NCBI GenBank assembly: GCA_934154805.1
Contig: CAKPGM010000001.1
Location: 74,711 to 138,710, forward strand
Length of the DNA: 64,000 bases
Direction of reading: 5' to 3'
From: an uncultured Clostridia bacterium
GTDB lineage: Bacteria > Bacillota > Clostridia > TANB77 > CAG-508
The notes beneath the pieces were generated by a model, which saw only the letters and a program-made list of their open reading frames with translations, was not told where the DNA came from and searched no databases. Numbering within the stretch: the stretch's first letter is position 1; each line of letters begins with the position of its first letter. The translations under genes were made by a program, and so were the position numbers. Shown one piece after another: positions 58,875 through 60,545 of the stretch.

Positions 58875-60545
58875 TTATGTAACCTCTTTCTTGATTATCT
58901 TTATTTATTTTATTCTTCCGTTATCTCCTTATTTCCCATATGTTTTCTCCGTTTTATTTTTGAAGATTTTATTATTTATTTTGTGTTTTTCTCACTTTTT
59001 CTTTGTATATTTAAATTATACTTAAAAAAAATCATACTTTATATTAAATATTAAATTTATTTTTATTTCTTTTTATTTCTTTTTTTTATTTTATTTAATA
59101 TTTATTTTTTAATTAATTATATTTTTATTATAATTAATTATTTATTTTATTTTTTATTCTTTATTAATTTTATTTTAATTTATTATTTATTTTTTTATTT
59201 TTGCAAATTAAATAAATTATTTTTTGCTACTAAATTATTCTCTTTTATTTTTTTCTATATTTTTATATTATTTAATTAATTTACCGCATATTTTTATGTA
59301 ACCTTTTTCTGAATTATTTTTATTTACCTTATTTTCCCATTCTTTCCCTATTTCCCATATGTTTTCGACATTTTATTCTTCAATATTTTATTATTTATTT
59401 TGTTTTTTTCTCATTTTTTATTTATATACTTAGATTATTCTTTTTAAAAATTATACCTTATATTATATATTTAATTGATTTTATTCATTTTTTTATTTAA
59501 TATTTATTTTTTAATTAATTATATTTTTTATTTTAATAATTAATTTAAATTATTTATTTAAATTAATTATTAGTTTTATTATTTTTTTAATTATTATTTA
59601 ATTTTTTATTATATTCTTTTATTATAATTTATTATTCATTTTTCATAATTAATAATATTTAATAAATTATTTTTATTTATATTTATTTTTATTAATTTAT
59701 TTAATTATTTTTATATTTATTTTTATATTATTTAATTAATTCACCACACATTCTTATGTAACCCTTTTTCTGAATTATTTTTATTTATTATCTTTTTCAA
59801 TTTTTCCTTATTTCCCATATGCTTTCGCCATTTTATTTTTGGATATTTTATTATTTATTTTGTTTTTTTCCATTTTTTATTTATATACTTAGATTATTCT
59901 TTTTAAAAATTATACCTTATATTATATATTTAATTGATTTTATTCATTTTTTTATTTAATATTTATTTTTTAATTAATTATATTTTTTATTTTAATAATT
60001 AATTTAAATTATTTATTTAAATTAATTATTAGTTTTATTATTTTTTTAATTATTATTTAATTTTTTATTATATTCTTTTATTATAATTTATTATTCATTT
60101 TTCATAATTAATAATATTTAATAAATTATTTTTATTTATATTTATTTTTATTAATTTATTTAATTATTTTTATATTTATTTTTATATTATTTAATTAATT
60201 CACCACACATTCTTATGTAACCCTTTTTCTAAATTATTTTTATTTATTATCTTTTCCAATTTTCCCTTATTTCCCATATGCTTTCGCCATTTTATTTTTG
60301 GATATTTTATTATTTATTTTGTTTTTTCTGCACGTTTTTTATTTTATTTCTTAATTATTATTTCTTAAAATTTAAGTTATACTATATATTTAATTATTTT
60401 TGTATTTATTTTTTTATTTTCATAAATTAAATAAATAATATTTTTTGCTACTAAATTATTTTCTTTTATTTTTTATATTATTTAATTAATTTAATACATA
60501 TTATTATGTAATCTCTTTCTATATTTTATTGATTATTTTTTGACA
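58875..60545. repeat. array of about 4.5 tandem units (419/460/459/291 bp) in an ORF-free, extremely A+T-rich region
   Basis: Anchor ttatgtaacc at 58875, 59294, 59754 and 60213, with variant ttatgtaatc at 60504. Conserved ~190-nt heads and near-pure A+T tails. No ORF of 60 aa or more on either strand. Confidence 0.9.
59412..60327. repeat. two copies of a 459-bp direct tandem duplication (59412-59870 and 59871-60327), about 99% identical
   Basis: Offset of exactly 459 nt. By eye only 3 substitutions in the shared head (ctgaatt vs ctaaatt; tctttttcaatttttcc vs tcttttccaattttccc), and the tails are identical. Confidence 0.85.

Follow-up and report, generated by a model that had tools for sequence, protein, structure and literature searches.

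The 64,000-nucleotide stretch of an uncultured Clostridia genome analyzed here (contig CAKPGM010000001.1; hereafter, the window) contains the convergent genes for an activase-like protein of 1460 aa (BcrAD/BadFG-DUF2229; plus strand, 54446-58828) and for the DNA gyrase subunit GyrA (minus strand, 60595-63045). The two genes are separated, from stop codon to stop codon, by 1766 bp that encompass an array of long tandem repeats (58873-60545) made of four full units and a 42-bp partial unit and flanked by two terminators. The gyrA terminator, a hairpin with a 12-bp stem (60563-60589), was detected by the terminator scan, and the hairpin that follows the activase-like gene (58839-58872), flanked by A-runs and T-runs, was seen in the sequence and produced weak terminator-like Rfam matches on both strands; the scan did not flag this second hairpin, and we suspect that its loop is too long. 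As read from the sequence, the activase hairpin could terminate transcription in both directions. The array starts 2 nt past it, exactly at TTATGTAAC.

The locus came to attention through an original prediction made from the window alone, in which the 10-mer TTATGTAACC was reported at 58875, 59294, 59754 and 60213 and its variant TTATGTAATC at 60504, with periods of 419, 460, 459 and 291 bp; both sequence reading and a repeat search reproduce these positions and periods. In the repeat search, the four copies of the 5' part of the unit (the head) are in register, with spacings of 419, 460 and 459 bp and a partial fifth copy 291 bp beyond, and Tandem Repeats Finder (TRF) reports a 459-bp period at 59245-60419 (2.6 copies, 93% matches, score 2030). 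Each unit consists of a head of about 190 nt and a tail of 100-330 nt. Unit 1 (58875-59293, 419 bp; nhmmer E=1.5e-33) has a head at 58875-59060 (18% GC) and a tail at 59061-59293 (6.5% GC), and unit 2 (59294-59753, 460 bp) has a head at 59294-59480 and a tail at 59481-59753 (4% GC). Unit 3 (59754-60212, 459 bp) resembles unit 2 most closely, with a 92% identical head and a tail that is identical over 272 nt, which is a signature of recent unequal exchange. Unit 4 (60213-60503, 291 bp) combines a complete head with a short tail of the unit 1 type, so that the two tail types proposed originally, one shared by units 1 and 4 and the other by units 2 and 3, are both borne out. The terminal partial unit (60504-60545) comprises TTATGTAATC and about 35 nt of the head, and abuts the gyrA terminator region. 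Neither pattern searches nor nhmmer found the head motif elsewhere in the window.

Apart from the array, no stretch of more than 200 nt in the window falls below 15% GC. The overall GC content of the array is 10.7%, with 17% in the heads and 5% in the tails, in agreement with the predicted contrast between G/C-bearing heads and tails of almost pure A+T. Fourfold-degenerate sites are 96.4% A+T in gyrA, against 89% for those of the activase gene, and show a strong A/T skew that depends on the strand; for a Firmicute, such a mutational bias is extreme. On the plus strand, the frequencies of T, A, C and G are.667,.297,.023 and.013 at the gyrA sites,.583,.309,.085 and.023 at the activase sites, and.638,.312,.042 and.008 in the array tails. 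The near-pure A+T composition of the tails and their excess of T over A thus represent the mutational equilibrium of this genome and need no special explanation. Because the tails have the composition of fourfold-degenerate sites, their A+T content and T skew are no evidence of curvature or of transcription. The heads, at 17% GC, are similar to ordinary intergenic DNA. A general caution follows, namely, that under extreme mutational bias, unconstrained DNA itself looks like pure, strand-skewed A+T.

GyrA is 99-100% identical to proteins named "Clostridium sp. CAG:780" at NCBI, and wherever a source label is attached to a matching contig (human gut, Hadza), the origin is a gut metagenome; the largest of these contigs are 1.46-1.56 Mb long. 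Near-identical strains, with flanks 97-100% identical and represented mostly by short-read assemblies (hereafter, lineage 1), differ widely in the length of the spacer between gyrA and the activase gene, which is 1054, 1093, 1133, 1307, 1339, 1541, 1572/3 or 1766 bp. These spacers hold 2, 3 or 4 full units of about 410-520 bp (three in strain contig L002, for example), so that of the candidate explanations listed in the original prediction, the unstable satellite is the one that fits the strain comparison. Heads are 92-100% identical between strains, and tails are 65-100% identical, with indels and mosaic best partners. In lineage 2, gyrA differs at only 5.3% of the fourfold-degenerate sites, yet the spacer, of 946-1168 bp, is barely alignable, with one diverged unit and a terminal core; lineage 2 contigs of 1.40-1.46 Mb likewise hold a spacer of about 1 kb. 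Given the low divergence of gyrA, turnover of this spacer must be structural rather than driven by point mutation. Gain and loss of units and shuffling of tails between strains are thus directly observed. Several short-read contigs break or have N gaps inside these arrays, and since the 272-nt identity between units 2 and 3 exceeds the usual short-read k-mers, exact copy numbers of this type of unit are not certified by short-read assemblies.

The array next to gyrA (array A) represents one site of a small family of repeats in gut bacteria related to Clostridium sp. CAG:780. In the contigs found through exact protein matches, the gene order is dnaA-dnaN-recF-gyrB, a spacer of 0.8-1.8 kb, a TraC-like gene, a TraG/VirB4-like ATPase gene, a 40-aa open reading frame (ORF), a 190-aa ORF, gyrA, array A and the convergent activase gene. 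The spacer after gyrB, which varies from 778 to 1784 bp among strains, can hold a second array (array B) of 1-2 units of about 470-513 bp with heads that are about 73% identical (contigs L016, 2800-4530, and L100, 13069-14342). Array B has the gyrB terminator on one side and, on the other, the promoter of the TraC-like gene, which is of the canonical sigma-70-like form TTGACA-17-TACAAT. Beyond these loci, a pattern scan of metagenome contigs yielded 50 matches, five of which proved genuine by nhmmer; three of the five (L043, L052 and L086) are the gyrA locus, so that only two contigs, L060 and L090, present new contexts. The first of these contains three diverged units over 1.7 kb (1-1722, 10% GC), comes from the same sample as the gyrA-locus contig L043, and stops at the 3' end of an incomplete gene, which looks by eye like tRNA-Ser(GCT) and was not called by ARAGORN; with this contig, the family has a third genomic seat. 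In the second, one head follows the end of a FemAB-like gene. The second ORF of this contig is a fusion of an RNB-neighbour gene with a FemAB-like 3' end, and the related contigs L093-L099 carry no heads, so the contig may be chimeric. Scans with the head pattern gave six single matches to genome contigs of unrelated taxa, which we take as chance, and four to viral contigs, none genuine; BLAST searches of plasmids and phages with the head gave no match.

A sister species, in which GyrA is 92.8% identical at the amino acid level and 44% of the fourfold-degenerate sites differ, lacks this array, and no more than 117 bp separate its gyrA from the activase gene. The gyrA-side array is, therefore, dispensable and lineage-specific. 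In the same species, the spacer between gyrB and the TraC-like gene (L107, 4230-7552) is 2.5-3.5 kb long and holds 2-3 tandem units of about 1020 bp, with no ORF of at least 60 aa except for a spurious one of 60 aa just past the gyrB terminator. The tail of this unit could be suspected to be decayed TraC-like coding sequence, but only about 85 nt upstream of the gene can be aligned. As advocated in the original prediction, the head was compared with the rest of the window and with relatives, and this comparison reveals a family at several loci, with the gyrA seat present in some lineages only.

What arrays A and B, L060 and the sister species have in common is a bipartite motif, TTATGTAAC-N45-TTATTYCCC, accompanied by short A/T blocks. 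In the window, the four copies are located at 58875-58937, 59294-59356, 59754-59816 and 60213-60275, each spanning 63 nt; the first, third and fourth match the pattern, of which zero matches are expected in shuffled sequences, and the second, in which the second block is the variant CTATTTCCC, was counted by hand. The motif region from TTATGTAAC to TTATTTCCC fits within 90 bp. The pattern matches the sister species, two of the three heads in L060 and most heads of arrays A and B in lineage 1, always with a total span of 62-63 nt; in lineage 2, the span is 73 nt, longer by 10-11 nt or about one helical turn. In the sister species, the 45-nt stretch between the blocks and the remainder of the head have diverged to the point of being undetectable by nhmmer. 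Both blocks, by contrast, are kept across 44% neutral divergence in a genome with a 96% A+T equilibrium. The crude probability that all 18 positions, six to seven of them G/C, are retained under these conditions is about 0.56^18 = 3e-5, from which we infer purifying selection on a bipartite site that probably acts at the DNA level. Gene conversion among paralogs or selection for selfish propagation could be alternative sources of this conservation. Resemblances to Spo0A boxes (TGNCGAA) and to CodY, parS and DnaA sites that visual inspection suggested in single units do not hold up from unit to unit.

The array has no apparent coding capacity. In keeping with the original description of the region as free of ORFs, there is none of at least 60 aa between the two stop codons, and the longest ORFs in 58829-60594, on the T-rich strand, are 44-50 aa. 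The hydrophobic mini-ORFs of this strand are conserved in neither frame nor length and lack a purine-rich upstream Shine-Dalgarno sequence: those that start within CATATG encode 7, 24, 46 and 50 aa in units 1-4, and array B has ATA or ACG in place of the ATG. These ORFs are a by-product of T-richness. The small ORFs of the A-rich strand (of the MAKAYGK type, and a 19-aa ORF with a TTG start) do not keep the frame or the start codon between units.

Taken together, these observations favor, at about even odds (a probability of roughly 0.5), a non-coding satellite, that is, a long-unit variable number tandem repeat (VNTR), in which the heads appear to keep a cis-acting DNA site for a candidate partner. 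The array has the properties by which a satellite is recognized: the repeats are head-to-tail, both in the TRF output and in the register of the heads; the copy number differs between close strains (2-4 units, mostly in short-read assemblies); and there is no coding capacity, the unit of the sister species being interrupted in all frames. Under this explanation, unequal homologous recombination or replication slippage between heads would expand and contract the array, and the tails (100-330 nt) evolve freely at the mutational equilibrium of about 95% A+T, with T>A on the plus strand of the window. The heads would persist because the bipartite motif is a putative protein-bound, cis-acting site, whose partner could be supplied by the host or tied to the neighboring TraC-like/TraG-like cassette. 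The ancestral seat would be the spacer directly upstream of the promoter of this cassette, and the gyrA-side array would be a secondary, dispensable offshoot.

Several observations weigh against this interpretation. The family is patchy: heads are not detectable after gyrB in lineage 2 and are absent from array B in some lineage 1 strains, and, with the sister species lacking array A as well, this distribution makes an essential role in the host less likely and would be expected just as well of a selfish or neutral element. Gene conversion within one genome could account in part for conservation of the motif among paralogs, and neither a binding protein nor a known motif matching the two blocks was identified. 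The absence of predicted RNA structure, discussed below, is compatible with an unstructured transcript. Finally, the survey reached about 86 kb of a genome of roughly 1.5 Mb.

The most serious competitor, which we nevertheless regard as unlikely, is a purely neutral satellite that arose by chance duplication in a spacer between convergent genes and grows and shrinks by unequal crossing-over, without any role for heads or tails and with heads that look conserved only because they are younger or gene-converted. Such an origin would account for the neutral composition of the tails, the rapid turnover that renders the lineage 2 spacer barely alignable at 5.3% fourfold-site difference in gyrA, the patchy presence of the family, including the dispensability of the array in the sister species, and the lack of a predicted product. 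It does not easily accommodate two G/C-containing blocks that persist at a fixed spacing over 44% neutral divergence at 96% A+T, when the sequence between and around them has diverged past detection, or the presence of the family at three or more loci.

Array A lies about 13 kb from dnaA, in a replichore whose leading strand corresponds to the minus strand of the window, and the genes upstream of dnaA are ordered gidB-gidA-trmE-jag-yidC-yidD-rnpA-rpmH. The cassette between gyrB and gyrA (minus strand, at 63148-63883 of the window and on past its end) encodes a TraC-like protein (PF26593), a VirB4/TraG-like ATPase (PF19044, AAA_10) and the 40-aa and 190-aa ORFs, which look like a single split gene, intact in the sister species, where it encodes 236 aa. 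The 190-aa protein, for which the alignment is shallow, carries no DNA-binding signature. The TraG-like ATPase is 589, 555, 532 or 368+154 aa long in different strains, which suggests decay of an old conjugative element. In one strain (L023, 1-5811), a block consisting of a tyrosine integrase, an S24 repressor-like peptidase and LysM has taken the place of all sequence upstream of about nt 700 in the TraG-like gene, and accordingly, the interval between gyrB and gyrA is an insertion hotspot. In both species, some 400 nt of normal GC content immediately follow the gyrB terminator (L016, 2800-3200; L107, 4360-4740); this segment contains no annotated gene and has no Rfam match, and in L107 is overlapped by the spurious 60-aa ORF mentioned above. 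At the opposite end of the window, positions 1-2587 are not non-coding, being covered by a single minus-strand ORF that is open for at least 862 aa and runs off the window edge.

With this neighborhood in mind, a non-autonomous mobile or integrative mini-element comes next among the explanations, although it is rather improbable. Each unit would then be one copy of an element without genes, a recombinase or transposase encoded elsewhere would recognize the motif or cross over at it, and the arrays would form by repeated insertion beside a copy already in place, in the manner of integrative-element accretion. The occurrence of heads at several unrelated loci (after gyrB, after gyrA and at the FemAB-like gene end in L090), the position of the L060 array beside the 3' end of the partial tRNA-Ser gene (as noted, read by eye and not called by ARAGORN), the start of arrays exactly at TTATGTAAC right after a terminator, the decaying conjugation-type genes and the integration hotspot that adjoin the arrays, and the patchy distribution across lineages all speak in favor of mobility, and conserved cis motifs could reflect selection for it. 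However, terminal inverted repeats and subterminal hairpins are lacking, neighboring tails are homologous or even identical (units 2 and 3), as in local duplication, a linked recombinase was not seen, the plasmid, phage and viral collections yielded no copies, and L090 counts for less if chimeric. A more specific version, similarly improbable, would be a new gene-less mobile "satellite" of small-genome gut Clostridia, in which the helically phased TTATGTAAC-N45/55-TTATTYCCC is read by a trans-acting recombinase or DNA-processing protein, perhaps derived from TraC/TraG, that seeds terminator-proximal loci where the repeat then amplifies in tandem.

Known elements that accrete in arrays offer only a partial parallel. 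Integrative elements accumulate in tandem in the case of cis-mobilizable elements and integrative and conjugative elements (CIME/ICE accretion) and in the Xer-dependent arrays of integrative mobile elements exploiting Xer (IMEX) at dif. Like these, the units described here are bounded by a short repeated core, conjugation-gene remnants adjoin, and one array lies beside the 3' end of a putative partial tRNA gene (L060); unlike these, there is no full dif-like 28-mer and there are no recombinase or cargo genes, and neighboring tails are homologous. A dif site has 28 bp, with two arms of 11 bp around a center of 6 bp; the Firmicute dif consensus gave no match with three or fewer mismatches, and only the 8-mer TTATGTAA is in common, which coincides with the start of the XerD arm of Firmicute dif.

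The original prediction also proposed that each unit could launch a minus-strand transcript of about 150 nt, and a locus of multicopy small RNAs (sRNAs), with either an A-rich minus-strand sRNA or a T/C-rich plus-strand sRNA carrying a UCCC-type anti-Shine-Dalgarno seed as in Rsa and LhrC, was therefore considered; it appears improbable, still more so than a mobile element. The predicted TATAAT or TATAAC hexamers do occur on the minus strand in all four heads of the window (59015-59020, 59450-59455, 59909-59914 and 60376-60381, as read from the sequence), ATAAAAT and TTTCCC blocks are conserved, and unit 1 abuts the hairpin that possibly terminates both ways. Nevertheless, lineage 2 has not kept the TATAAT block, and the array has fewer promoter-like sites than shuffled sequences do (19 against 26.8). 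The terminator scan of 58500-60900 found only the gyrA site and none inside the array, so that, unit 1 with its adjoining hairpin aside, units 2-4 have no terminator on either strand. RNAalifold applied to 21 diverged heads, which bears on the covariation check called for in the original prediction, gave zero consensus base pairs on either strand, and the GC-richer head of the sister species folds no better than shuffles (z about -0.5). Rfam, searched at both gathering and permissive cutoffs with the window, arrays A and B and the array of the sister species, returned terminator noise only. The original exclusion of rRNA and tRNA is upheld. In addition, the spacing change of 10-11 nt in lineage 2 suits helical phasing of DNA better than RNA. 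Judged by these predictions, the array probably gives rise to no structured RNA and no protein, and the minus-strand sRNA as originally formulated is not supported.

Tandem multicopy sRNAs exist in Firmicutes, LhrC1-4 of Listeria being an example. Compared with LhrC1-4 and the Rsa sRNAs, the array is similar in having intergenic tandem units and a C-rich (UCCC-like) block conserved on one strand, but has no per-unit terminator, no conserved hairpins and no supported promoter, and its units are 3-4 times longer. For the UCCC-motif Rsa sRNAs, see PMC2790875. The array can also be set against type I toxin-antitoxin repeats, among which are the long direct repeats (LDR) and the SIB/QUAD repeats of Escherichia coli. 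Tandem intergenic units of about 300-500 bp with hydrophobic mini-ORFs on one strand are common to these systems and the array, but here, the frame and length of the ORFs are not conserved, the Shine-Dalgarno sequence is missing and the ATG is absent from array B, and we reject this assignment.

The original prediction further offered a curved or protein-titrating architectural element. Curved or easily melted tails would bind or titrate nucleoid proteins, or buffer supercoiling near the gyrase genes and the origin, as might be imagined from the placement of the arrays, which follow gyrB and gyrA at no more than about 13 kb from dnaA, and from the extreme A+T content of the tails. This is very unlikely. 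Phasing of A-tracts at 10-11.5 bp, which bears on both the curvature candidate and the curvature prediction suggested as a check, is not above that in composition-matched shuffles (the fraction of shuffles reaching the observed value is 0.05-0.34), and intrinsically curved A-tract DNA is thus not indicated. The tails have the composition of neutral fourfold sites and their length and sequence are not conserved between strains, and the gyrA spacer of the sister species is only 117 bp. With the tails neutral and A-tracts unphased, the arguments from curvature and from a "purine-loaded transcript" both fall. A cluster of DnaA boxes (TTATCCACA, one mismatch allowed) was sought as well, but none of the 19 matches in the window, a total that corresponds to chance, falls within 58829-60594. 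The canonical oriC spacers (rpmH-dnaA and dnaA-dnaN), about 11-13 kb away, carry no heads.

An assembly artefact, that is, misjoined or over-collapsed short reads in low-complexity DNA, may be dismissed as barely credible: several short-read assemblies do have contig breaks or N gaps in these spacers and the identical tails of units 2 and 3 are longer than typical k-mers, but the same four-unit layout recurs in an independent assembly with its own single-nucleotide polymorphisms (SNPs; L003, a 299-kb contig, with three SNPs in the array and five in 9.4 kb), the ordered units of the window, with heads diverged to 80-92% identity, can be placed without ambiguity, and more than 20 assemblies all show arrays at the gyrA site.

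The dismissal of a CRISPR (clustered regularly interspaced short palindromic repeats) array in the original prediction was correct: such arrays have identical repeats of about 23-50 nt with unique spacers in between, but here, the period is 290-460 bp, the would-be spacers, that is, the tails, are homologous to one another, and the sole match to a CRISPR direct repeat is below threshold and located at the activase terminator. The same is true of an origin from an insertion sequence or a miniature inverted-repeat transposable element, given that the inverted repeats present are A/T palindromes inside the tails, with none at the unit ends and no consensus hairpins.

The claim that no described bacterial element has such a layout stands only in part. 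Non-coding satellites and VNTRs, the nearest kind described so far, are known in bacteria; what is unusual is the long unit with its head and tail. In a survey of 119 bacterial reference genomes, non-coding families of long repeats were rare, and transposed ones were found, among bacteria, only in Leptospira interrogans (PMC6749651). The units of the bacterial families listed there with repeats longer than 30 nt are 30-156 nt long, and those of L. interrogans are 37-69 nt long (Subirana & Messeguer 2019, PMC6749651). The array resembles the L. interrogans satellites in its head-to-tail, intergenic, non-coding repeats, in the presence of several loci per genome and in the change of copy number between strains. 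It differs from them in unit length, 290-520 bp here and about 1 kb in the sister species, and in its head-tail build, where conservation is confined to a bipartite motif and all other sequence drifts to about 95% A+T. From known satellites in general, too, this family is set apart by its units of 0.3-1 kb, by their division into head and tail and by the conserved bipartite motif.

The feature is, then, real and unusual in size, and the support for a function is confined to a conserved short motif. For practical purposes, the gyrA locus is a hypervariable marker for strain typing of a prevalent, uncultured gut species, and the arrays are a predictable breakpoint of short-read assemblies beside the origin-proximal gyrB and gyrA. 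If the motif is a true protein-binding or mobility site, it would represent a new cis-element in a clade without genetics, and could be the reason why a genome of 1.5 Mb keeps non-coding DNA on a kilobase scale.

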